Source: a virus. Taken from it: a stretch of 64,000 nucleotides of DNA. The notes beneath the pieces are model-generated. The model made no database searches. It had not been told where the DNA came from and was given only the letters and a program-made list of their open reading frames with translations. Positions within the stretch are counted from its first letter, which is position 1; the number at the start of each line of letters is the position of its first letter. Made by a program: the position numbers and the translations under genes. Shown here piece after piece: positions 7,739 to 64,000 of this stretch. The stretch is from IMG/VR virus record IMGVR_UViG_3300025888_000011, positions 77,153 through 141,152 of that record; one strand, 5' to 3'.

Positions 7739-8155
7739 ATGGCTACCACATTTCAAGATATATATAATAAATTCTTATTTCAAGTAAGAGATTTAGAGTT
7801 TGATTTATTAGAAGATGCTGAATTAGAACAACTACTATATAATTATTTAGAAAATGCTACAGTAGAATTCAAACAATGTAGAAAAGATTTAAATGATTTT
7901 GATAAAACTTTAGAGCAGTTTAATGTAAATTTATCTATTGAGGAAATATATATCGTTTCTTTAGGAATGGTATTACATTGGTTAAGACCTAAAATCAATA
8001 GAGAAGAACTATTAAAGCAATCTATAGGTGATAGAGATTATAAATTAGCATCTAATTGGCAAACTTTAGGTAAATTAATGGATAGAGAAATAATGATACA
8101 AAATAATCTTAAAAACTACATATCAAAATATCAATATATTGCTAGTGAAATCTAG
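7739..8155 (+). CDS. Putative head-tail adaptor
   Basis: 138 aa helical protein; synteny only. Confidence 0.5.
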   Translation: MATTFQDIYNKFLFQVRDLEFDLLEDAELEQLLYNYLENATVEFKQCRKDLNDFDKTLEQFNVNLSIEEIYIVSLGMVLHWLRPKINREELLKQSIGDRDYKLASNWQTLGKLMDREIMIQNNLKNYISKYQYIASEI

Positions 8156-8173
8156 AAAGGAGGATTTTTTATT

Positions 8174-9214
8174 ATGGGAAAGTTTGATTTATTTAGAAAA
8201 CTAAATACAATAAATGGTAGTACGTCACAAGAAGTAATCGTAAATAATATAGAAAAAGAATTTGACCAATATATAAAAAATACTCCTAATTCTTATATTT
8301 CTACTAGATATAATGATGTAAGTAATGTAGAAATTAAATGTACATTACAAGATGCAGGTTTTAATGATAAGAAAAATGGTGATGAGAAAATACTTTGTAC
8401 TTATTTATCTTGTGATTTAAAACAAGGTGATATTATAAAAATAGAAAGTAAAATATATCTTATTACATTTCAAGAAGATAATACTATTAAAACACATAAT
8501 ACATATATTGTAAGACCTTGTAATAGTCAATTAAAGTTTAAATATAATGGAGTTATTTATTCCATTCCCGCAATTATTACGAATCAAAGTCCATATTTAG
8601 TTGGAGTTGCTGATGGGAAATATTTTGATGTAGGAAACGTGAAATTAAGTTGTTCTCTTGGAATAAATTTATTAAACAAGGATGTAGTTAAAGTTATATT
8701 TAGAGGAATGAGATTTATTCTTTATTCAAATGGAGTAAGAATTGCTTATAAAATAACCTCAACAGATACTATTTCAAAAGAAGGATTATTAGCACTTGTA
8801 TTAGAAGAAAGTAACGACTTAAAAATTGAGGATGTGGGAGATGTGGCTTTTAACAATTATGAAACTAATACCGAACTAGAAACACCTGTGATTCCAACAC
8901 CAACATATAAGATAGTTAGTTCTACAGGGGATGTTAATTATTTATTTAATGGAAGTGTTAGAACATTTAAGGTTGTCAGTGCAGATGGTACAACTATAAC
9001 AGATAACTCATTTACTTTTACTCTAGGTCAAAGTTCAACTAATCCTGCTATGACACCAATAATGCTTATAACTCTCATAGATAATAAAACAACCTTAGCT
9101 GTGCGTTTAACTCCACATGTTACAAATAAAGGATATTTCCTTTTAATTGCCACAGATTCTTTAGGTAATATAACTAGTCGAGAATTACGAGTGAAGGGAA
9201 ATTATGATATATAA
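8174..9214 (+). CDS. Putative head-closure/neck protein with beta-rich C-terminus
   Basis: AGGAGG RBS; synteny; beta-strand rich. Confidence 0.45.
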   Translation: MGKFDLFRKLNTINGSTSQEVIVNNIEKEFDQYIKNTPNSYISTRYNDVSNVEIKCTLQDAGFNDKKNGDEKILCTYLSCDLKQGDIIKIESKIYLITFQEDNTIKTHNTYIVRPCNSQLKFKYNGVIYSIPAIITNQSPYLVGVADGKYFDVGNVKLSCSLGINLLNKDVVKVIFRGMRFILYSNGVRIAYKITSTDTISKEGLLALVLEESNDLKIEDVGDVAFNNYETNTELETPVIPTPTYKIVSSTGDVNYLFNGSVRTFKVVSADGTTITDNSFTFTLGQSSTNPAMTPIMLITLIDNKTTLAVRLTPHVTNKGYFLLIATDSLGNITSRELRVKGNYDI

Positions 9215-9243
9215 ATAATATAAAAGATTAAAGGAGTATTTAT

Positions 9244-9402
9244 ATGAAAATATTTAATATTAAACAAGCAGATATATTCATTAAGAACTCTGCTACTCCA
9301 ATAGGAGTAAATACAGGGAATAAATTTAAAGTGTTCATAGAATTTGAAGAAAACCAAATATTTAAAGATTTAATGGTGCGATGGCTAAATAAAGAATTTT
9401 AG
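9244..9402 (+). CDS. 52 aa small protein absent from ORF track (DUF5659-like)
   Basis: AAGGAG RBS; MKIFNIKQADIFIKNSATPIGVNTGNKFKVFIEFEENQIFKDLMVRWLNKEF; resembles 18334 and 48862. Confidence 0.65.
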   Translation: MKIFNIKQADIFIKNSATPIGVNTGNKFKVFIEFEENQIFKDLMVRWLNKEF

Positions 9403-9450
9403 CTATTTTTTATTGCCCAAAATAATACGATTTAAGGGAGGATTTATAAT

Positions 9451-10578
9451 ATGGGATTGAGTATTAACAAAATATCATTTAAAAAATGGTGTATGGATAA
9501 CTTATCAAAAAAAGAAGCAAACAATATTTTAGACAGATGGGATTATGAATTAAATAATAAAAAACCTGATGAAATTGGATATAGTTCAAAAGGAGAAAAC
9601 AATAAAGGATATTGGTTTAAGTGCTTAGAGCATCTTGAACATGGAAGTGAATTAAAAAATATTAAGAATTTCGTATATGGACATAAGAAAAGTATAGATT
9701 GTTACCAATGTAATTCTTTTGCTCAGTGGGGAATCGACAATATATGTAGTGATTTCTTAGAAAAATATTGGGATTATAATAAAAATGATAAACTAGAACT
9801 AAATCCTTGGGAAATATCTAAATGTGTATATAAGGAAGTTTGGATATTTTGTAAAAACAAAGATAAGCCTCATCATGGAAGCTACATTATAGGATGTGGT
9901 TATTTTGTAAAAGGTAGACGTTGTCCTTATTGTAGTCATAGAGGTGGAAAAACCCATCCATTAGATAGTTTTGGTCAATACATAATAGATAATCATGGAG
10001 TTAAATTTTTAATTGACATATGGTCTGATAAAAATAAGGTATCTCCTTTTGAATATGCACCAGGAAGTAATTATAAAGTTTGGTGGAAATGTTTAGATAA
10101 TAAACACGATGATTATTTAAGAGAGATAAGCAGTTCAAATAGATTTGAATATCGTTGCCCTGACTGTGTTCAAGAAAGAAATGAAAGTTTACTTGAAGAA
10201 AAGACTAGACTATATTTAAATGAGTTGGGATATGATATTTTACATGAGCGTCATTGCACTATTATCCCTAAAAATCCTAAAACAAAAATGCCTTTACCTT
10301 TTGATAATGAAATAAATATAAATGGAATAAAACTTATTTTGGAGGTTCATGGAATTCAGCATTACAAATTATGTGGATTTCATATTTTAGCATCTAAACA
10401 TAATAATACAACACCAGAGTATGAATTTCATATGCAAAAAGTAAGAGATAAATATAAAAGTTATGTAGCATATAGAAATGGTTATAAGTATATTGCTATT
10501 CCATATACTTCTGACAATAAAAAGGAAAAATATAAAACTTTAATTGATAATAAGATTAAAAAAATACAAAATAAGTAG
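9451..10578 (+). CDS. Free-standing putative homing endonuclease (zinc-ribbon repeats plus PD-(D/E)XK/Vsr-like domain)
   Basis: Repeated WDY..N / W.KC..H / CxxC units; C-terminal PFDNE..ILEVHGIQHY..IPY. Confidence 0.7.
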   Translation: MGLSINKISFKKWCMDNLSKKEANNILDRWDYELNNKKPDEIGYSSKGENNKGYWFKCLEHLEHGSELKNIKNFVYGHKKSIDCYQCNSFAQWGIDNICSDFLEKYWDYNKNDKLELNPWEISKCVYKEVWIFCKNKDKPHHGSYIIGCGYFVKGRRCPYCSHRGGKTHPLDSFGQYIIDNHGVKFLIDIWSDKNKVSPFEYAPGSNYKVWWKCLDNKHDDYLREISSSNRFEYRCPDCVQERNESLLEEKTRLYLNELGYDILHERHCTIIPKNPKTKMPLPFDNEININGIKLILEVHGIQHYKLCGFHILASKHNNTTPEYEFHMQKVRDKYKSYVAYRNGYKYIAIPYTSDNKKEKYKTLIDNKIKKIQNK

Positions 10579-10588
10579 GTGAAATAAT

Positions 10589-11131
10589 TTGAGCAACGTT
10601 TCCATGAAATTTCGTAATATAACAAAAATAAAAAATGGTATTATTAATTTAATTTCACACGACAATAAAATCAAGAGGTACGTCTTATATCTTACGAGAG
10701 AGCCTTTAAATTTGTCAGCTTATGATACATCTAGTATTTTACAAGACCAACCAGATGTTGAAATTGATTTGGTTTTTGGAGACCCACATATTTATGGTTC
10801 AAGTTTTAATGATGTTGTATTAAGTGCATCACAAGTTACAATATTTGTACATAGATATATGGGAGACCTTACTGGGAAAGCACTTGGCATAAATACTCTA
10901 ATAGTGGATATAGTAACTCCTTTGGAATTCAATATTTTAAATGAAACTGAAGACCGTAATTCTGCCATAGCATGTTCTATATGCGATTTGGTCGACGATA
11001 CATCAATTGGAGTAGGAAAAGCAAGTGTTGTTAAATATACTGAGTCAAGATACAGTCTTACTGATAATAATTATGAGATTCTTAGTTTATTCATAGAAGT
11101 TTCCACATCAAATTTAAGAGTTAATAAATAG
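10589..11131 (+). CDS. Putative tail completion/terminator protein
   Basis: 180 aa, AGGTG RBS, synteny before tail tube. Confidence 0.4.
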   Translation: MSNVSMKFRNITKIKNGIINLISHDNKIKRYVLYLTREPLNLSAYDTSSILQDQPDVEIDLVFGDPHIYGSSFNDVVLSASQVTIFVHRYMGDLTGKALGINTLIVDIVTPLEFNILNETEDRNSAIACSICDLVDDTSIGVGKASVVKYTESRYSLTDNNYEILSLFIEVSTSNLRVNK

Positions 11132-11168
11132 AATAAATAAAGTAAATAGAACAAGTAGGTGATTATTT

Positions 11169-11939
11169 ATGTTAGAGAATATTTTAAATGAACCATATGA
11201 ATTAATTGAAATAGACAAAGAAACAAATGAAATAAAAAATGAAATATATATTTATCCTATTATTATTAAAGATTATTTTAAATTTCAAATATTAACAAGA
11301 TTATTATATGTGAGTAAAGGTAATTTTTCAGAAACAGAAATTCCTTTATTAGATTTAATTGTATTTCATTTAATTGATGTTGAATTAACTGACGAACAAA
11401 ATATTATTAATAGAAATGATAGAATAAAAGAATTAGAACAAGTGTTTTCAATAATTATTAGAAAAGAAATACATTTTTATGAAGATAAAACACATTATCA
11501 ATTTATTTCAGATGATAAGAAAAGTATAATACATAATTTAAATTACAATGAAATTAGAACAATAATAATGAATCAAAATTTAATGTTTGAGCCTAAGATT
11601 TATAAAAATAAATTAGTGCAAGAATGGGCAGATTCAACTTTAAATGCAAAAATGAAAAATCAGCCCAAGATTGGAATGGAAGAGATGTTATCAACTATTT
11701 CTGTGAAAACAGGTAAACATTATTGGGATTTAAAAGAATATAGTATTTATCAAATCTATAGTGATTTTTATAGATTAAGAAAAGACAAAAATTATGATAC
11801 AAGTTACGCAATGAAATTACAAGGAGTTGATATAAGTATAGAAGATTTTGCAGAATGTCTAGATTTATATAAAAATCCTTATGATAGTGTATTTGTTGAT
11901 GATGGGAAATTAGACCAAATAAAAAATGTTTGTAAATAG
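11169..11939 (+). CDS. Tail-region hypothetical protein (possible assembly chaperone)
   Basis: 256 aa; C-terminal YWDLKEYSIYQIY pattern typical of tail chaperone-like proteins. Confidence 0.4.
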   Translation: MLENILNEPYELIEIDKETNEIKNEIYIYPIIIKDYFKFQILTRLLYVSKGNFSETEIPLLDLIVFHLIDVELTDEQNIINRNDRIKELEQVFSIIIRKEIHFYEDKTHYQFISDDKKSIIHNLNYNEIRTIIMNQNLMFEPKIYKNKLVQEWADSTLNAKMKNQPKIGMEEMLSTISVKTGKHYWDLKEYSIYQIYSDFYRLRKDKNYDTSYAMKLQGVDISIEDFAECLDLYKNPYDSVFVDDGKLDQIKNVCK

Positions 11940-12007: not shown

Positions 12008-12629
12008 ATGATAGCAGATATTTTTAAAGTACTATTAATTGATAATGCAACTGGTGAAACATTTGCAAGAACAACATTGGAATCAGCTTCAATAGAAATA
12101 AAAGAAGAGTCAAACGAGGTGGAAGGTGGAGGTTCAGTTTATGCTATAATTCATAATGGAAAAAAAGAAACTATCGCATTGTCAGATGTAGAAGTCGACT
12201 TTGGCATTATAGCTAAACAACTTGGAGTAGACGCAGTTACAGGAGCAACAATAGCTTATGCTATGCCTAAATTTTATACAGTAGAAACAGGTTTAATAAT
12301 AACATTAGATAATGAACCATTAGTAGGTTCAATGTCTATATTTACAGAAGCAGGAGTTCCTATATTGGCAGTGGGTATTACATCAACTGTTGGAAAAGTA
12401 GTTACTCTTGCAACAGGTGTAGTAGGAGACCAAATAGAAGTAAGAACATATAAATATCTTACTGGAGTGACAACTCAGTCTATAGAAATAAACAATACAA
12501 AGTTTGCAAAAGGTGTTACTGCTGTACTTGAAACAATAGAGATAACTCCTGAAGAAGTTCCTATAAATATCATTCAATTTATCTTTGATAGTTGTGCTTT
12601 TGATGGTGGATTTAAAATTGATACAAAGA
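12008..12629 (+). CDS. Putative major tail (tube) protein, exon 1
   Basis: AAGGAGG RBS, highly expressed codon usage, beta-rich; frame enters intron after GGFKIDTK; exact junction uncertain (12622-12630). Confidence 0.6.
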
Positions 12630-13061
12630 TAATAAGATGGTTGCACAAACTATCTTAGCCTCGTACATTCAGAAATGAGTGTAGGACACAGATTTAATTG
12701 CAGGTAACTCCCAAGAGCCTTACACCACAATATAACTGAAAAGATTATATGAAGGTACGAAAGTAGAAAAAACGTAAGGATGGATATAAGGTTAAATCCT
12801 AAGTATCTGATAATATTCTACATATTATAAAACGGATGTTCATGCAGGTAAGCACCTAATGAGTAGAAATACTACGGTGAAACTTCAACGACTATCCTTG
12901 AAATAGGAGTAAAGCCACAAGCGATTGGTGGAAGAAAAAGTCTGCCCTTAACAAATAATGTTGAAGGTGAAGAAATAGTCTACTCACGTTGAGAAATCAA
13001 GTGGTCACTTAATTAACTAGAGTGACATTTATGGAGTAGCGTTCATGAGTAAATATAAAGG
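12630..13061 (+). ncRNA. Group I intron 2 (ORF-less, IA-like) in tail tube gene
   Basis: P7 TCAACGACTA (12885-94)/AAATAGTCT (12973-81); P4 TGCAGG..CATGCA; long blocks shared with intron 5; boundaries uncertain by a few nt. Confidence 0.85.
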
Positions 13062-13165
13062 CAAAACGTGACGCAGTAAAGCATGACATTGGACTTAAAG
13101 TGTTGAAAAAGAGAAGTAAGGACTCAGTTGGCAAGATTCTTAGAATTCCAATAGCAACAGTATAA
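13062..13165 (+). CDS. Putative major tail protein, exon 2 (not in ORF track)
   Basis: (A/T)KRDAVKHDIGLKVLKKRSKDSVGKILRIPIATV-stop follows the intron terminal G. Confidence 0.75.
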
Positions 13166-13212: not shown

Positions 13213-13322
13213 AGAATTAGAGGATAGATAAGGAGTAGCTCTTCATATCGAAAACACATTTCTCCAAATGTGTTCCTCTGTTTTACAAATGGAGGAATAA
13301 TTATTTGGAGGTAATTAATAAA

Positions 13323-14762
13323 ATGTCTAAAAAGAAAACAATAAAACAATATAAAAATGAAGTATATAAATTGGTAAATACAGAGTATGATATATTAGGT
13401 GATTACAATGGAAATAAAATTAATATACAAATGAGACATAACAATGAAAGTTGTAGTAATTTTGAATTTCCAATGAGTCCTAATAGTTTTTTAAGAGGTC
13501 AGAGGTGTCCTAAGTGTAGTGGAAGAATGAAGAAAACAACTGAGCAATTTAAGAAAGAAGTCTTTAAAATTGAAGGTGAAAAATATGATGTTTTAGGTGA
13601 TTATATAAATAATCACACTAAAATATTAATGCGACATAATTGTGAAAAATGTAATAATCATGAATATGATGTAACTCCAAAGGATTTTTTATTTGGGTAT
13701 AGATGTCCTAAATGTTTTGGTACTCCTTTAAAAACACAAGAGGAATTTGAAACAGAAGTATATAGTTTGGTACAAGATAAATATACTGTTTTAGGAAAGT
13801 ATAAAACTAATAAGACTAAAATATTAATGAAGCATAATTGTAAAGAGTGTGATAGTTTTGAATTTGAAATGTCTCCTAACTCTTTTTTAAGTAAAAATCA
13901 ACGATGTCCAAAATGTGGTGGCACTATGTTAAAGACCGATGAGCAGTTTAAAAGTGAGGTTTTTAATCTCGTAAAAGTTGAGTATGTAGTATTAGAAAAA
14001 TATATAGGTGCACATACTAAAATTTTATTTAAACACAATTCAGATAAATGTAATAATCATGAATTTCCAATGACTCCTGATAGTTTCTTATCTGGAGAGC
14101 AAAGATGTCCAAAGTGTGGTGGAACAAAAAAGAAAACAGATAAAGAATTCAAGCAACAAATATTTAGTTTAGTTGGTGATGAATACACAGTCTTAGAAGA
14201 ATATATAAATGATAGTACTAAAATAATGTTTAGACATAATAATAAAGGATGTGGTAATTATGAATATCCAGTGAAGCCTAACTCTTTCTTAAATGGACAC
14301 AGATGTCCTAAATGTAATGAATCTAAAGGTGAACAAGCAATAAGACATTACTGTAAAGATAATAATATAAATTTTACTCCACAATATATTTATGAAGACT
14401 TATTATCTGACTTAGGTAATCCATTAAAGTATGATTTTGCAATATTTAATGATATAAATAAAATAGATTTAAAATATCTAATAGAATATGATGGAGAATT
14501 CCATTATAAAGTTATAAAATATAAAAATGAAACTATAGAATGGGCTGAAGCAAAATTTGCAAAACAAAAATATCATGACAAATTAAAAAATGAATATTGT
14601 ATTGAAAATAATATAGAATTATTAAGAATACCATATTGGGAATTTGATAATTTAGAAAGAATATTAACAGATTATTTAATACACGGAAAAGAAATAAGTG
14701 AATTGGGAATAAGAGAATACATTGATGATATTGAGATTAATAATATTGCATGTAATAGCTAA
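13323..14762 (+). CDS. Free-standing putative homing endonuclease, five tandem Zn-binding repeats plus Vsr/DUF559-like nuclease
   Basis: Five ~67 aa repeats ending RCPKC; YDFAI..IEYDGEFHY..LLRIPYW; GGAGG RBS favours ATG 13323. Confidence 0.75.
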   Translation: MSKKKTIKQYKNEVYKLVNTEYDILGDYNGNKINIQMRHNNESCSNFEFPMSPNSFLRGQRCPKCSGRMKKTTEQFKKEVFKIEGEKYDVLGDYINNHTKILMRHNCEKCNNHEYDVTPKDFLFGYRCPKCFGTPLKTQEEFETEVYSLVQDKYTVLGKYKTNKTKILMKHNCKECDSFEFEMSPNSFLSKNQRCPKCGGTMLKTDEQFKSEVFNLVKVEYVVLEKYIGAHTKILFKHNSDKCNNHEFPMTPDSFLSGEQRCPKCGGTKKKTDKEFKQQIFSLVGDEYTVLEEYINDSTKIMFRHNNKGCGNYEYPVKPNSFLNGHRCPKCNESKGEQAIRHYCKDNNINFTPQYIYEDLLSDLGNPLKYDFAIFNDINKIDLKYLIEYDGEFHYKVIKYKNETIEWAEAKFAKQKYHDKLKNEYCIENNIELLRIPYWEFDNLERILTDYLIHGKEISELGIREYIDDIEINNIACNS

Positions 14763-57298: not shown

Positions 57299-58777
57299 AT
57301 GGCAATACCCAGTCTGATAATTAGCAACAATTTTGTGCAAACAAAAGCACAGTTTAACGAATTAATAAATTATATGACAAATACATTAAGAGTACCTTTG
57401 ACTCTAAAATTAAATATCGGAGAAATACAAAATCAATTAAGGCAAATTACTGCACAAACGGAACAATTTAAAGCTACTATGAGTTCTAGTATGGGTCTCA
57501 ACACTGGTGGGTTTGATAAAGTAATGACGACTGTTAGAGAAATAGAAGGTGGAATGGGAAAGGTAGCGAGTACGGTCACCACTATTTCAAGTAATATGGG
57601 TCAAGTTATTACAACTACAACAAAACATGTATCGTTAATCGGAGAAGCATTAAGTATACAAAATCAAATAAGTCAAGCTGTTGTAAAAACTACAGATAAT
57701 TATAAAACACAATTAGCTATAAAAGAAAAATCTATCGCAATGGGTGAATCAGGCTTAATTCAACGTGAAAACGTACTATTAGCAGAAGCTACTGCATTAA
57801 TGACAAAGAAACTAAACTTAGAACAACAAATTAAAGTAGCAAAAGAAAGTGGAAATTTACCATTACAGAGAGCATTGATTTTAAGAGAACAGGAAGTTGC
57901 ACTTCAATTACAATCTGCGAGAGCTAGTTTATCTAATTCTAGTGAGGCAACTAAATCTACTTTATTACAAAGAGAAGTTGAAATAAGGGCAAGTATTGTT
58001 CTTCAAAATGCTAAAATATTAGGTCAAGGACAATTAGAAGCTACTGAGATTAAACGAAGAATAGCATTATATCAGCAAGAAAAAGAATTACAAATGGCAG
58101 GAATGAATCAGAAATATGGTTCATCTATAAATACTGCAAATTTAGCACAAGCACAATTAGCTATAAGACAATTAGGAACATCTGGCATAACAAGTCTTAG
58201 TCAATTAAATGCAAAAGAACAACAAGTAAATATGAGTTTGAAAGAAATAGGAGCAAATGCTAGAGTTGCATCAAATGCTTTAAAACAAACAGGAGGTTTG
58301 AGTGGTGCATTTAATGGGTTAGTATCGAATATGAAAAGTATGGCAATTTGGAGTCTTACAGCAGGTGCTATATTTGGAACGGTTAATGCTATAAAAGAAG
58401 GTATTGGTTCAGCGTTAGAAATGGACAAAACCCTCTCAATTTTATCTATTACAATGAACGGTACAAAAAGTGATTTTCAAGCAATGGCTAAAGAAATACA
58501 AAGTACCGCTATAGCGACAGGTAGTTCAGTGGAAGCTGTATCAGATGCTAGTAAAATTTACGCAAATATGGGAGAAACTGCAAGTTCAATACTTGAAAAG
58601 ACGCGTTCTGCAATTATGTTATCGAACGTCACAGGGCTTGATACATCACAAACAACAGATTCTGTGCATGCAATTTTAAACCAGTATAATGAAGTGGGAA
58701 AGACGGCTACGGTAACATCTGAGCATGTTGCAAATTCTCTAGTAGCAATAAGTAAAAATATGGCAATGGACTTCGGT
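57299..58777 (+). CDS. Tape measure protein, exon 1
   Basis: Ala/Gln-rich helical protein with TP901-type core; ends MAMDFG at U58777. Confidence 0.85.
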
Positions 58778-59961
58778 AGTCTAAAATGTGCCGACTAGGG
58801 TAGAAATATTCCTATGAAGAAACAAACCAATATCGGTAGAAGCTAAATTATAAAAATAAATCCAATACCTCAATAAAAACTTTAATATGTCACCAACATA
58901 AAAGTATAGAATATAGTAATATAAATATAATATAAAAAAGGAAGCGAAATTAATGAAAAATAAGTATGGTCAAATCTATATGATAACTAATAAAATAGAT
59001 GGGAAAGTCTACATAGGTAAAACCGTGGGTAGAGATGTTCTCAAAGATAGATATAATGGTAATTTACTATCAACGCATAATTTACATTTAAAAAATTCTA
59101 TTTTAAAATATGAAATACAGAATTTTGAGATTAGCACATTATGTTGGGCAAACTCAAATGAGGAATTAGGAAATAAAGAAAAAGAATATATTTTAAAATA
59201 TGATGCAATGAATGATAAAAAAGGATATAACATGCATGAGGGTGGACAAGGTGGAAGAATGAGTGCTGAAATTAATCTTATAATTGGAGAAAAATCAAAG
59301 GAGTTTTGGGATAGTCATTCTGAAAGAAAACTTGAACTTGCTAAAAGTATGGTTGGTGAAAATAATTTTCTTGTAAAGCTAGGTGGTCATAACGATGAAA
59401 CAAAATTAAAAATGAGTAATTCGAGAAAACAACTATTAAAAGACCATAAAGACATTTTAGATAAGTCATTGGAAGCTTGTAACACACCTCAAGCTATTAG
59501 AAATAGAGTAATATCACAAAGCAAATTTTGGAATATTCAATATGATTTAGGTATGAATGAATTAAATAGATTTCATACGATGAAGGATATGTATAATTTT
59601 ATGATTAAAAATAATATTGAGACAAATATAACTTATGGTGGATTTAAAAATAAGAGCAAACTGAATAAGGTGTTTGGTGAACACCAATATAAAGGATTTT
59701 ATTGGAGAAAAATTGGGAAATGATTTTTATAACAAGCTAGTACCGAGATAAAGCACATTATAATAGATGTGGCTCATCGTAACGCATAGAAGTTGAAACT
59801 GTGTTTTAATGCAGAACAAAATACTTCCACGAGTGGTTTGCACCTAAACAAGTAAAGTTGAAGGTGAAAATGTATGCTAGACTGGGTAGTATTGACCTAC
59901 CGATTAAAATGAGGGAAACCTCCAGAGCAGTAGATAAAAAGCTACTGGGTAATTACGTACG
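58778..59961 (+). mobile_element. Group I intron 4 carrying a GIY-YIG endonuclease
   Basis: P1 UCGGU/GCCGA; P7 AACGCATA (59781-88)/TATGCT (59873-78); terminal G59961; in-frame join DFG|AGIEEI. Confidence 0.92.
58953..59723 (+). CDS. Intron-encoded GIY-YIG homing endonuclease
   Basis: GQIYMITNKIDGKVYIGKT..R..E..GYN; NUMOD3-like HNDETKLKMS. Confidence 0.9.
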   Translation: MKNKYGQIYMITNKIDGKVYIGKTVGRDVLKDRYNGNLLSTHNLHLKNSILKYEIQNFEISTLCWANSNEELGNKEKEYILKYDAMNDKKGYNMHEGGQGGRMSAEINLIIGEKSKEFWDSHSERKLELAKSMVGENNFLVKLGGHNDETKLKMSNSRKQLLKDHKDILDKSLEACNTPQAIRNRVISQSKFWNIQYDLGMNELNRFHTMKDMYNFMIKNNIETNITYGGFKNKSKLNKVFGEHQYKGFYWRKIGK

Positions 59962-60061
59962 GCAGGTATAGAAGAAATAACTAAGGGAATTCAGGTAGTG
60001 GGAACAGTTTCGTCCCAAACAGCAAAACTTACCTCAGATGAAACAGAAGCAATGATTGGAG
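59962..60061 (+). CDS. Tape measure protein, ~100 nt exon 2 (not in ORF track)
   Basis: AGIEEITKGIQVVGTVSSQTAKLTSDETEAMIG between two introns. Confidence 0.85.
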
Positions 60062-60466
60062 TAACAAAAATAATTTAATAATTATAGCTCCCTTTGTCAA
60101 GTAATTGGCATAGCAAATAACACATATATGCAGGTAACTCCTAAAGCCTTACACTAAAACGGAATAGCGAATAGCTATATATGGAATGGTACGAAAGTAG
60201 AAAAAACGTAAGGATGATTAAATGGTTAAATCCTAATTAATCGTAAACAATGGATGTTCATGCAGGGAATTAGCGAATAGCTTTGCCCTCAACGACTATC
60301 TCGAAAGAGAGTAAAACCGTAAGCGATTGACGGAGGAAAAGTGTTACTCCTTATTTAATAAGGATGGTGAAATAGTCTCGACTCTATATGAGAGTATAGG
60401 AAGTTTATTATATTAAATTAATATAAAAGAACTGCTTGGATTTAGCAAATTTAGGTGAAGATTACG
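60062..60466 (+). ncRNA. Group I intron 5 (ORF-less, IA-like)
   Basis: P7 CAACGACTA (60290-98)/AAATAGTCT (60370-78); long blocks shared with intron 2; boundaries +/-1 nt. Confidence 0.87.
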
Positions 60467-63400
60467 CAATTGTAGAAAAAACTCGATTAGGTGGAGAAAC
60501 TGTCGGAAATGGTCTAAAAACCATAATGGCAAGAATCTACCAATCAAAAAGTATAGACCCAGATGTTTCTGATGAAGATATGTCTAAAATGTCAGCGATG
60601 CTTAGTAAATTAGGAATACAAGTTCGTGACACTACTGGTGCTTATAGACCTCTAAATGATATTTTGCAGGAAATAAGAACTAAACAAGAAGGACTTACTG
60701 ATTCCCAGAAAATGGCAATTAATACACAGGCATCTGGAATTCGCCAAGCTAATATTTTTGCGAATGCTCTTAGTACTGTAGAAAAAGCACAGACTCTAAG
60801 TAACGAGGCAACCAATTCAAACGGGGAACTACAAAATGCGAATAATAAGTACTTAGATACGGCTCAAGCAAAATGGAAAATATTGGGTTCTACTATGACG
60901 GCAATGTGGCAGAATTCAGTATCTTCAGATGGAATTAAAGGAATGATTGATGGATTAACAGGAATTGTAAAAGTTTTTGGTAATTTAAAAACTATAGCAA
61001 TGGCAGTTGTAACAACATTGTTACTTTTTAAAGGAGTGGGAATTCTTAGTTTTTTTACAGCACTTCCTGCAAAAATAATTGGAAGTATTACATCATTAAC
61101 ATTATATAGAAATATTTCTGCCACCGTACAAATGCAACAAGCAGGAATGATAACAACAAATCAAGCATTATCGTTCTCATTTAAAGCATTAGGTGTTTCA
61201 ATAAAAACAGCTTTTCTCTCTAATCCGCTAGGTTGGATAGCATTAGGAATTACTGCTATAGCTAGTGCCTTTTCCTTTGCTAGTTCTCAAGCTAAAAAAC
61301 TTCAAGAGAATAACGCAGAACTACTTACAACCTCTAAAGAAGCAACTAATGCCAATAATGAAAATTTAAAATACTTTCAAGAAGAGGGAAATTCATATGA
61401 CACATTAAAAGACAAAGTAACATTAACCACTGCAGAAAAACAAAAACTTCAAGAAATTCAGACCAAAATAGGAGAACAATTTCCTCAATTAATAAAGGGA
61501 TATGATGCTGAAGGAAAAGTTATTATTGATAAAACTAAAAACGTAAAAGATTTAGTTGAAGCTTTAAAAGAACAAAACACACAACAACAAAATATATTAT
61601 TAGCAAATGGGGGAGATGCTTTAAAAGGGTCTCAAAAAACAATCTCTAATAATAACGCTTCGAAAGTTGAAAATAATACAGAATTAAAAAAACTAGAAAC
61701 AGGAAATTATACTACTGGTCATAATGACGCACCTATATATGAATCAGAGAATATAACTGCCTATACTAAAAAAGTAGCAGACTTAACAAAACAACAAAAA
61801 GATGGGAAAAATGTAACAGATGAATTAGCAAAAGCAACGGCAACATTAAAAGACTTAGAATATAAACGTTCTGATATATTAAACGCTAATTCAGTATTAG
61901 AATCAAAAAATAAAGATGAAATGGCTAAAATAACTCCATATATTAGTGCTGTTATTAGTCAGTATGAAGGATTAAATGATGTTCAAAAGAAATTTGTTGA
62001 AAATAGTGTTGAATTAACTCCATCGGATTTAATGAAGTTTGGAGAAGGAGATTTTAGTGGATTAAGAACAGCAGTTAATGAACAAATTAAAAAACTTTCT
62101 AACTCTAAAGAAGTTGTAGACCTTGATAATTTAATTAAAATAGAAAACCCAAATCCTGCACAAATAAAGGAATATTTTGATTTAATATTTTCATTGGCGA
62201 AAAAAACTGGTAAAAATCCCATAGATTTATCAAAATTAATGCCACTACAAGGTGATTCAACAGAAATAGAAAAACAATTAAAAATTTATCTTGATGAAGT
62301 TAATTCTAAAATGAAAAAAGAAAAAGACAGTAATAAAATAAAAGCGTTAAAAACACAAGCAGATACAATAAATAATATGATTATTGCAGTACATGTTGAA
62401 GCAACAGAGGTTGATGATGCACAAGTTAAATTGGATAAACTAGCAACTGCTATAAAAGCTTTAACAACAACTTTTGACACATCTATGGATTCAATATCTT
62501 CTTATAATAAACTTATTTCACAATTCGATGAAGATGGTAGTTTTTCTGCTGAATCTATAAAGGAAATAATTGACAGTCATCAAGAATTAGCTGGGTATTT
62601 AGGCGATGAACCACTTCTCTATAATAAAATAAGTGAAGCAATGAATGCTTCGAAAAATACCGCAAATAAAGCTTATGCAGAAATGATGGCTTCTAATGAA
62701 GCTTACTATACCTCAAATATTAAAGGAACAGACATAATTAAAAAAGCATTAGGCTCTTATTATGATGAATTATCAGTAGACCAAAAAAATGATTTAGAAA
62801 ATTCTAAAACACTGGCAGAAAGTAAATTAATTGTTGAAAAATCACTCATTTCAAGATTAGCCTCAGCTTGGGATGCTTATAATAAAGCTGTTAGTGATGT
62901 CCTAAGTAAACATACTGAGTTAGCAACAAGGGCAGAGGGAAATGAAGCAGGAGATGAGCACACTGATGCTCTTTTAAGTCGGCTAGTTGGAAACAATAAA
63001 GCAGTGCAAGATGCCTACACTTCGGCACAAAGTATACAGTCTCAAATTGATAAAATCGATACTTCTTTTAGCAATATTACTGCCAACATAAAAGCTCCAA
63101 ACATTGATTCTTATGGTGCCTCTGTGGAAAAAGCAACTGATTCAACTAATAAGCTTACTGAGGCAGATAAAGCTTTAACTCAAGCCAATAAAGATTTAGC
63201 ACAAGCTACAAAACAATCAAAAAACGCAACAGATGATTATGATAATGCTATGAAATCTTTATCTGTACAAATGAAATTACTTGATTCGAGTCAATCTAAA
63301 CTTGAGGAACATTCTAAAGCTTACCGAGATGGAATTGAAAAGAAAATAACATTGTTAAAACAAGAATTAGATATAACTAAAAAATCTATGGTTGTGAATC

Positions 63401-64000
63401 AAGCTAATGCCAAAATATTACAATCACTTGAAGGTACTGCAAATATAGCTAGTGCTAATTCTGTATCTTCTAAAGCAGGACAAGACGTAGTAGCCGAAGC
63501 AAAGAAATATCTTGGAACTCCTTACGTATGGGGAGGTTCTAATACAAATGGTTTTGATTGTAGTGGGTTGGTACAATATGTATATAAACAACTTGGAGTA
63601 GATATAGGAAGAACAACATATGACCAAGTTAAACAAGGTACATCGGTAGCTAAAAAGGATTTACAAGCAGGTGATATTGTATTTTTTGGAGACGCATCAA
63701 GCCCTCATCATGAAGGAATGTATATTGGTGATGGTAAGTTTATTCAAGCACCAAAAACAGGTGATGTTGTTAAAATATCACAATTAAATAGCAGAAGTGA
63801 TTATGCAGGAGCTAGACGTATTTTAAGTGGTGGCTCTTCGGCAAGCAAATCTTCTACATCATCAAGTTCTTCAAGTAGTGGTTCATATGCAGGAGGATAT
63901 GCAAATGGTAAATATAAAGATTGGATAAATCAAGCAGGAGCAAAATATGGAATTGACCCAAATATAATTGCAGGAATTATTCAAACCGAATCAAGTTTTG
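60467..64000 (+). CDS. Tape measure protein, exon 3 (partial) with NlpC/P60 and start of lytic transglycosylase domain
   Basis: IVEKTRLGGETVGNGLKTIMAR TMP motif; LGTPYVWGG..GFDCSGLVQY..HHEGMYIG in the same frame (~63480-63830); KYGIDPNIIAGIIQTESSF at the window end; frame spot-checked only. Confidence 0.88.

Follow-up and report, generated by a model that had tools for sequence, protein, structure and literature searches.

Group I introns almost always cut 3' of a U held in a U-G pair and end in G, and this rule of "U before, G at end" is used by people and programs to place the boundaries of such introns. Two introns in an uncultured large phage raise the question of whether the rule can be trusted throughout. 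The phage is IMG/VR record IMGVR_UViG_3300025888_000011, a metagenomic assembly of 195.6 kb with 27% G+C; the window analyzed here is a 64,000-nucleotide stretch of it (bases 6608-70607). The introns, called introns 2 and 5, interrupt the genes for the tail tube protein and the tape measure. A preliminary description of the window had proposed that their junctions do not fit the rule, and had offered two ways out: either the 5' cut lies one nucleotide 5' of the U of the U-G pair in helix P1, or the 3' site lies one nucleotide past the G. We find that introns 2 and 5 are very probably transposon-less ribozymes of the group B type, with the 5' splice site one nucleotide ahead of the U that tops P1 and with the terminal G kept. 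This one-base shift is not a new splicing rule, since it has already been published for group B IStrons, and experiments on the same lineage of ribozymes have demonstrated it. The additions made here are modest. Members of the lineage that lack a transposon are found in the tail genes of a large uncultured phage, there is evidence that Herelleviridae often carry wrongly annotated members of the clade, and one copy has A at position -1 and no wobble pair.

Splice junctions of introns 2 and 5

Intron 2 lies in a 241-codon gene of the PF27173 YomU_Tube family (phrog_2729), encoding the tail tube protein, and intron 5 in the tape measure gene, which also carries intron 4. Coordinates are those of the window, and ^ marks a junction.

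Tail tube exon 1: 12008-12629, + strand; ends in A12629
Intron 2: 12630-13061, + strand; 432 nt, starts UAAU, ends AAAGG, terminal G13061
Tail tube exon 2: 13062-13165, + strand; KRDAVKH...IATV and then a stop, spliced product 241 residues
Tape-measure micro-exon: 59967-60061, + strand; 95 nt between introns 4 and 5, ends in G60061, spliced frame open
Intron 5: 60062-60466, + strand; 405 nt, starts UAAC, ends GAUUACG, terminal G60466
Tape-measure exon 3: 60467-64000, + strand; starts CAAUUG and extends beyond the window end, 1248 codons in the genome
P1 of intron 5: 60058-60091, + strand; GGAGU (60058-60062) with GCUCC (60087-60091), U60062.G60087 topping the stem and an internal loop following
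P1 of intron 2: 12626-12656, + strand; AAGAUA (12626-12631) with UAUCUU (12651-12656), read from the sequence, its register taken from the junction

The P1 that had been drawn for intron 5, GGAGU/GCUCC with a U-G pair, is supported by both sequence and fold (U60062.G60087). Cutting after U60062 and joining after G60466 does shift the frame of the tape measure gene, as the preliminary description had noted, and the equivalent cut shifts the frame of the tail tube gene. We placed the intron 2 junction against 14 intron-less homologs (241-258 residues, 38-57% identity), which are of constant length around the site and follow the pattern [DNSAQ]T[KAQTS][TS][KEQAT][RK], where the fourth column is always T or S. 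The join A12629^U12630...G13061^C13062 yields IDTKTKRDAVKH, compared with LDTKTKREEIKH in the closest homolog (P0002), and DTKTKR is identical in the two. The correspondence extends to DNA: P0002 reads GATACAAAAACAAAACGTGA and the spliced window GATACAAAG^ACAAAACGTGA, with 20/21 bases equal across the join. This is the register AAGA^U...G^CAA, giving DTKTKRDA, that had been suggested for intron 2; it keeps the frame and introduces no insertion or deletion relative to any of the 14 homologs. Two further joins that leave the product at the same length, G12628/G13060 and U12630/after C13062, put Ala or Ile at a position that is Thr or Ser in every homolog.

For intron 5, the frame is likewise kept by the proposed register GGAG^U...G^CAA. 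The join G60061^U60062...G60466^C60467 yields EAMIGAIVEKTRLGGETVGNGLKTI, in which MIGAIVEKTR is gap-free against its tape-measure homologs, SPbeta YomI (GYTTAIASTTRESGNIVGNSLKTI; TTAIASTTR) and Lactococcus phage LW81 (TTAIGAVTQ); a similar motif is found in phage c-st (ATMGAIISEKTRESG; MGAIISEKTR) and in Geobacillus virus E3 (GHATAIIEVTRESG; ATAIIEVTR). The tape-measure frame is open once introns 4 and 5 are removed. For both introns, alignment with intron-less homologs fixed the exon boundaries where the preliminary description had put them.

Could both introns instead be cut in a fully canonical way at other nearby sites, the proteins then carrying small insertions or deletions? Four such joins are in frame: U60062^...G60455^, which inserts four residues (VEDY) and is the sole fully canonical in-frame alternative found for intron 5, and, for intron 2, U12638^...G13061^ (three residues added), U12630^...G13047^ (five added) and U12622^...G13060^ (two lost). 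U60062 does belong to a proper U-G pair, and U12638 lies within the most stable local hairpin together with guide sequence. Against these sites, no homolog has an insertion or deletion at either position, the P0002 nucleotide match runs straight across the proposed intron 2 join, and the relatives of these introns have no canonical in-frame site near the junction. Furthermore, G13047 closes the P9.2 hairpin that is common to the relatives, and G60455 lies 11 nt inside a 3' tail that aligns with the relatives' terminal UUACGG. The join U12622^...G13060^, earlier singled out as canonical-looking, is indeed in frame, but as a splice site it removes two residues that are present in 14/14 homologs. 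We consider canonical splicing at any of these sites improbable.

The same offset in cultured phages and in IStrons

A sensitive BLAST search with the intron 2 sequence gave matches to related cores in 115 records of cultured phages, most of them Staphylococcus and Enterococcus Herelleviridae. In six introns of this clade that we tested, the canonical rule shifts the frame in every case (6/6), and the rule R^U...G^N, where R is a purine, keeps it in 6/6 and is the only one never contradicted. Alleles with and without the intron are informative. In the tail tube gene of Enterococcus phage phiEF17H, compared with intron-less phiEF24C, the junction is CAG^UGAGAUU...AACUG^UUC ACA, with P1 CGCAGU/GCUGUG; the exon-2 differences are all synonymous (6/6) and therefore the mRNA must read CAG-UUC. 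In Staphylococcus phage qdsa001, a Silviavirus, orf86 compared with phiIPLA-C1C gives UGG GG^U UACGAU...AUAUGG^UAAUCUC. The qdsa001 exonuclease gene reads UAU GGG^UAAUUGCCCC...CUUACGG^CAG GGA against TAT GGG CAA GGT in intron-less Remus, the downstream differences being synonymous only, and therefore there is no U at the mRNA join. The intron in the qdsa001 tail lysin gene has the 3' end CUUACGG, as in the exonuclease intron, but its exon 2 starts with U; Remus also carries the tail lysin "intron 101".

The phiEF17H and qdsa001 elements resemble the window introns in their core (68-84% identity in blocks), in the R^U...G^ junction and in interrupting structural or DNA-metabolism genes. In phiEF17H, too, the tail tube gene is interrupted, and a related endonuclease gene lies just downstream. 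Unlike intron 2, all of these elements have G at -1, and two of those in qdsa001 have a TnpB-type open reading frame (ORF) and a CGG end. Across eight members of the clade, the P1 pairs below the cut covary (GGAG/CUCC, AAGA/UCUU, CGCAG/CUGUG, GGGG/CCCU, GGG/CCC, AAGG/CCUU, AGAG/CUCU and GAGG/CCUC); position +1 is always U, and its partner is G in six and A in two.

The same homolog method gave ordinary U^...G^ joins for control introns, namely the E3 tape-measure intron (GUGGAU^...AAUCG^AAC), the c-st tape-measure intron (AGUGGU^...AUAUG^GAA) and, by homolog alignment, window intron 4 (GACUU^C...GGCAGG^U). The offset is therefore a property of the clade and not of the method. Like introns 2 and 5, these canonical introns are group I introns in essential phage genes, and T4 td and Twort orf142 are canonical phage group I introns as well. 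Like the window introns, the E3 intron even has AACGACUAUCC and GAUAGUCU in P7, and it has a P1 of 4 bp with a U-G pair at the end. Unlike introns 2 and 5, however, the E3 and c-st tape-measure introns cut after U (GGAU^ and GGU^), and BLAST found no match from the window introns to the canonical control introns.

These comparisons also bear on the second alternative of the preliminary description, in which the 5' cut falls after the P1 U, as the rule has it, and the 3' site lies one nucleotide past the terminal G, so that the intron ends in GC or GU. Such splicing keeps both window frames and, where exon 2 starts with U (phiEF17H, qdsa001 orf86 and qdsa001 lysin104), predicts the same mRNA as a shifted 5' site. 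Elsewhere the two part company. It would create a stop (GGG UAG) in the exonuclease gene of qdsa001, where the downstream exon and that of Remus are separated by synonymous changes only; in the tail tube protein it places Ile where 14/14 homologs have Thr or Ser, and in the tape measure Val where SPbeta, LW81 and the c-st and E3 motifs have Ala. It would also have two near-identical IStron copies of qdsa001 end differently, one in C and the other in U, and the published IStron BcISt1 ligates its exons without the U (PMC4227781). A 3' site past the G is thus very unlikely. Of the two ways out, the cut one nucleotide 5' of the U is the one that homologs, cultured-phage alleles and the reverse-transcription PCR (RT-PCR) of BcISt1 favor.

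Tourasse, Stabell & Kolsto 2014 (NAR 42:12333; PMC4227781) reported that group B (IS607-type) IStrons splice after G, with U as the first intron base and the U-G pair shifted by one. Their group B list includes BcISt1 of Bacillus cereus and CbISt1-4, of which CbISt3 and CbISt4 reside in Clostridium botulinum phage c-st, and in RT-PCR of BcISt1 the ligated exons lacked the U, whereas the full-length intron circle contained it (PMC4227781). The splice sites of IS607-family IStrons have been confirmed by RNA sequencing in C. senegalense (PMC10690162), and their alternative 3' sites share a terminal G, mostly in CGG (PMC10690162, PMC13521648). In our searches, the qdsa001 core matched two elements of phage c-st (E 1e-17 and 2e-16), behind whose intron cores lie an IS607-type ORF A encoding a serine recombinase (1/2) and a TnpB-like ORF B (2/2), the ORF make-up of IStrons CbISt3 and CbISt4 as listed in PMC4227781. 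The window introns match the same c-st ribozymes: intron 2 with 74.6% identity over 122 nt (the CbISt4-like element) and 83.9% over 62 nt (the other), and intron 5 with 73.5% over 113 nt. For the c-st element with both serine recombinase and TnpB (AP008983.1 126757-129878, reverse strand; guide GCCCUG), we found no GGG-U complement within 1.3 kb upstream and left the 5' boundary unplaced.

Two of the qdsa001 elements hold a TnpB-type ORF (PF01385, PF07282), annotated "transposase", and end in CUUACGG; these elements, in the exonuclease and tail lysin genes, are true group B IStrons in Staphylococcus phages. One of them lies at KY779848.1 91910-93832, and the host genes of both are annotated as separate ORFs. 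IStrons of Staphylococcus phages are not mentioned in the literature searched, and papers dealing with Bastillevirinae introns, bacterial group I introns and Silviavirus genomes have nothing on a one-base offset.

The last alternative that the relatives address is that sequencing or assembly went wrong by one base close to each junction, for which the metagenomic origin and low G+C content of the record might be cited. The offset is seen at two independent introns of the window, however, and again in independently sequenced phages (phiEF17H, qdsa001 and their relatives) and in the published IStrons, and error is an extremely remote explanation.

While the joins, the kinship and the offset in relatives come from our own comparisons, cutting by the ribozyme at this position is taken from published relatives, and self-splicing of introns 2 and 5 would be expected by analogy with them. 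In such a reaction, the 5' exon would end in a purine Watson-Crick paired to the guide (G60061-C60088 in intron 5, A12629-U12653 in intron 2), U60062 or U12630 would be the first intron base, and G60466 or G13061 would act as the normal terminal G. As in the published relatives, an exogenous G would attack the phosphate between the -1 purine and the +1 U, and the 3' OH of the purine would then attack after the terminal G; splicing would re-form two conserved codons, that for Thr (ACA) in the tail tube gene and that for Ala (GCA) in the tape measure gene. After the first step, the first base of exon 2 (C or U) may replace the +1 U opposite the same guide base, with which it can pair in 5/6 cases (C-G, U.G, U-A), the exception being intron 2 (C opposite A). 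The register shift may be tied to the U pair being the last P1 pair directly under the loop, as suggested by Tourasse et al., who explicitly leave open how the cut site is chosen (PMC4227781). P10 pairings, examined by eye for all junction models, did not discriminate among them. A +1 ribosomal frameshift after canonical splicing was also considered and rejected: a slippery context is present only in phiEF17H, and the tail tube would need near-complete efficiency.

Class of the introns and peculiarities of intron 2

The structural features on which the classification rests are as follows.

P7 of intron 2: GACUAU 12890-12895 and AUAGUC 12975-12980, + strand; the G-binding helix, enclosing the P3'/P8 region
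P7 of intron 5: GACUAU 60294-60299 and AUAGUC 60372-60377, + strand; placed by alignment
P2 of intron 2: 12664-12683, + strand; hairpin UACAUUC/GAGUGUA, from the fold
P9.1 and P9.2 of intron 2: 13004-13026 and 13027-13050, + strand; hairpins, the second with a GUAGCG loop, followed by the 11-nt tail AAAUAUAAAGG

The preliminary description had called introns 2 and 5 close relatives, and the three shared strings that it quoted do occur once in each intron (12699/60129, 12754/60188 and 12834/60252). BLAST of intron 2 against the whole genome matched, besides the intron itself, intron 5 alone (81% over 107 nt, E 2e-21; 81% over 54 nt), and an nhmmer profile of the clade matched the genome only at these two introns. 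In an alignment of eight clade sequences the core is conserved, 36/59 predicted pairs show compensatory changes, and P7 (GACUAU/AUAGUC) is invariant in 8/8. The P9.2 loop of intron 2 is common to the qdsa001, phiEF17H and c-st elements.

We found no ORF of at least 40 residues on the + strand of intron 2 and, in the ORF listing, none of at least 90 residues in intron 5; at 432 and 405 nt, both are too short for a transposase gene. In intron 5 the motif GUGAAGAU runs straight into the terminal UACG, leaving the position of the insertion sequence (IS) empty, and only a 13-bp AU-rich hairpin is kept, with no long AU-rich inverted-repeat stem. Since they lack ORFs and are kin to IStron ribozymes, and since the IS position is empty in intron 5, introns 2 and 5 are, as judged from sequence, plain group I (IA2-type) introns of the clade of group B (IS607-type) IStron ribozymes, and not IStrons.

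The window introns share with group B IStrons an IA2-type ribozyme, a purine-ended 5' exon with the U as the first base of the element and the 5' site one base upstream of it, and a terminal G, G13061 and G60466 being the last intron bases under the homolog-supported joins. Thus the exons end in A12629 and G60061 and not in the U, paired with a guide G, that is usual for group I introns. In intron 5, as in the IStrons, the +1 U and the first guide base form a U-G pair that closes P1 beneath a loop; in intron 2 the corresponding pair is U12630-A12652, with one further pair possible above it. Also shared are the P9.2 GUAGCG loop and a GAAxAU-like motif before the 3' tail, which in IStrons precedes the IS insertion point. 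The window introns differ from IStrons proper in having neither ORF A nor ORF B (TnpA/TnpB) nor the AU-rich inverted-repeat stem around the IS. They also differ at the splice sites, as group B IStrons use GG-ending sites and CGG ends, whereas intron 5 has GGAG^...UACG and intron 2 AAGA^...AAGG. For intron 5 a published exception, CsISt1, is similar, with an AG site and a CAG end (PMC4227781).

Two other systems invite comparison. An IS-less group IA2 intron of Turicibacter, related to CbISt1 and CbISt4, has a GGAGG homing site (PMC4227781); compared by its description only, it is like the window introns a plain intron of the same ribozyme lineage at a purine-ended site, but it is bacterial and chromosomal, whereas the window introns are phage-borne. 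In the myxomycete Diderma, the nuclear ribosomal DNA intron S529 has a G:C pair where U:G would be usual at its 5' splice site, and self-splices in vitro (PMC3679873). Like the window introns, it is a natural group I intron that follows a G and has a Watson-Crick pair at the cut; unlike them, it is a nuclear IC1/IE-type intron unrelated in sequence, and the text consulted (PMC3679873) reports no adjacent U-G pair.

Intron 2 has further features of its own.

Intron-internal hairpin: 12633-12657, + strand; 10 bp, UAAGAUGGUU/AACUAUCUUA, in the minimum-energy fold with P2 (-21.8 kcal/mol, z -4.86)
GCCUCG directly before P2: 12658-12663, + strand; identified by alignment with relatives, the c-st sequence and the exon sequence

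Several observations weigh against shifted-site splicing as we propose it, most of them from intron 2. This intron departs from the published pattern, having A at -1, where every other member examined has G, and a U-A in place of the U-G pair; its P1 would be cut between the pairs A12629-U12653 and U12630-A12652, with no wobble pair at all. Its guide lies 7 nt further from P2 than in the relatives. The hairpin at 12633-12657 repeats the AAGAU of the exon, sequesters the guide and is, in the predicted fold, a stronger competitor of P1. In-frame alternatives exist at U12638^...G13061 and A12637^...G13060, each adding three residues. Rfam support is weak: RF00028 matches intron 2 over 12799-13003 with 28.3 bits (E 8e-5), short of the gathering score of 50, and gives no match to intron 5 even at E 10. 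Finally, the tape-measure homologs used for intron 5 are distant, at about 27% identity.

The missing wobble pair, displaced guide and competing hairpin of intron 2, together with the weak Rfam scores, would suit a further explanation, namely that one or both introns no longer splice and that the genes are broken or expressed in pieces. Both downstream exons, however, have kept their frame and are conserved and undamaged: the homologs can be aligned with tail tube exon 2 right up to its end, and the tape measure stays open for 1248 further codons. Both proteins are indispensable to the virion, and the catalytic core is conserved with covariation. We judge loss of splicing highly unlikely. Within the shifted-site reading, which we continue to prefer, the departures of intron 2 and its competing hairpin mean that its activity and exact site are less certain than those of intron 5.

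The sequence GCCUCG matches the guide of CbISt4 (GCCUC, target AGAGG) in both position and sequence, and the P2 that follows is very similar to that of CbISt4. We found no GAGG complement to it in the intron 2 exon; the exon complement UAUCUU lies just upstream instead. GCCUCG is likely a vestigial guide sequence, and we infer that the guide of intron 2 has been retargeted and now faces a competing decoy hairpin, which may be a folding trap, a regulator or a relic of an earlier insertion site. We tentatively suggest, as a proposal that could well go either way, that intron 2 is a working ribozyme of the shifted register that has neither G at -1 nor a wobble pair: it would cut after the A of an A-U pair, using a replacement guide 7 nt upstream of the vestigial GCCUC of a GAGG-targeting, IStron-like ancestor, and the guide would be held in the 10-bp decoy until P1 forms.

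Genomic setting and consequences

Endonuclease genes lie close to both introns.

Free-standing endonuclease gene: 13305-14762, + strand; just downstream of the tail tube gene, phrog_559 HNH endonuclease (E 9e-105)

The encoded protein has CapR and treble-clef zinc-finger repeats, and its C-terminal domain is 31% identical (E 1e-9) to the product of an ORF equally placed behind the phiEF17H tail tube intron. This gene is a candidate mobility helper outside the intron and hints at endonuclease-assisted homing; the ORF-less intron 2 may home collaboratively by way of it. In the neighboring stretch 9214-11169, an endonuclease-like ORF (9451-10578), paralogous to the 13305 ORF (E 2e-5), sits between ORFs 8174-9214 and 10589-11131. 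It may belong to a further intron of the structural module or be a homing endonuclease that stands free there, and is perhaps the element that had been numbered intron 1. Intron 4 of the tape measure (58774-59966) carries a GIY-YIG endonuclease ORF inside it (58953-59723, PF01541).

The tape measures of c-st and Geobacillus E3 are each annotated as two genes and are really interrupted by a canonical group I intron. Their intron sites differ from those of the window, and this tape-measure region is an intron hot spot.

The window phage has no close relative in the cultured-phage or viral-contig collections. Neither host gene has a close relative among the IMG/VR viral contigs, tblastn of the tail tube protein found no match in cultured phages, and the sole megablast match of either intron region to cultured phages was 61 nt to Staphylococcus phage PMBT8. 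That phage (MK893987.1, about 7800-11600) carries the same intron core four times in a stretch of ~4 kb, with endonuclease ORFs placed between the copies; no host reading frame is evident around them, and they could not be used for junctions.

A clade that regularly breaks the rule by which group I boundaries are placed has consequences for annotation. The interrupted genes of the window phage and of sequenced Staphylococcus and Enterococcus Herelleviridae are annotated as truncated or split ORFs; examples are, in qdsa001, orf86/87 and the genes for the exonuclease and the tail lysin and, in phiEF17H, the gene for the tail tube. Knowing the rule R^U...G^ lets such genes be joined correctly. 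The window further shows that the shifted-site ribozyme is not bound to IS607 transposons and that, in a large phage, it also occurs as a plain intron within genes essential to the virion. Intron 2, which has drifted further from the consensus, offers a natural test case for the choice of the cut site. If our tentative proposal for it is true, the 5' site in this clade would be set by helix geometry and not by the U-G pair, and such introns could retarget by growing a new guide sequence.

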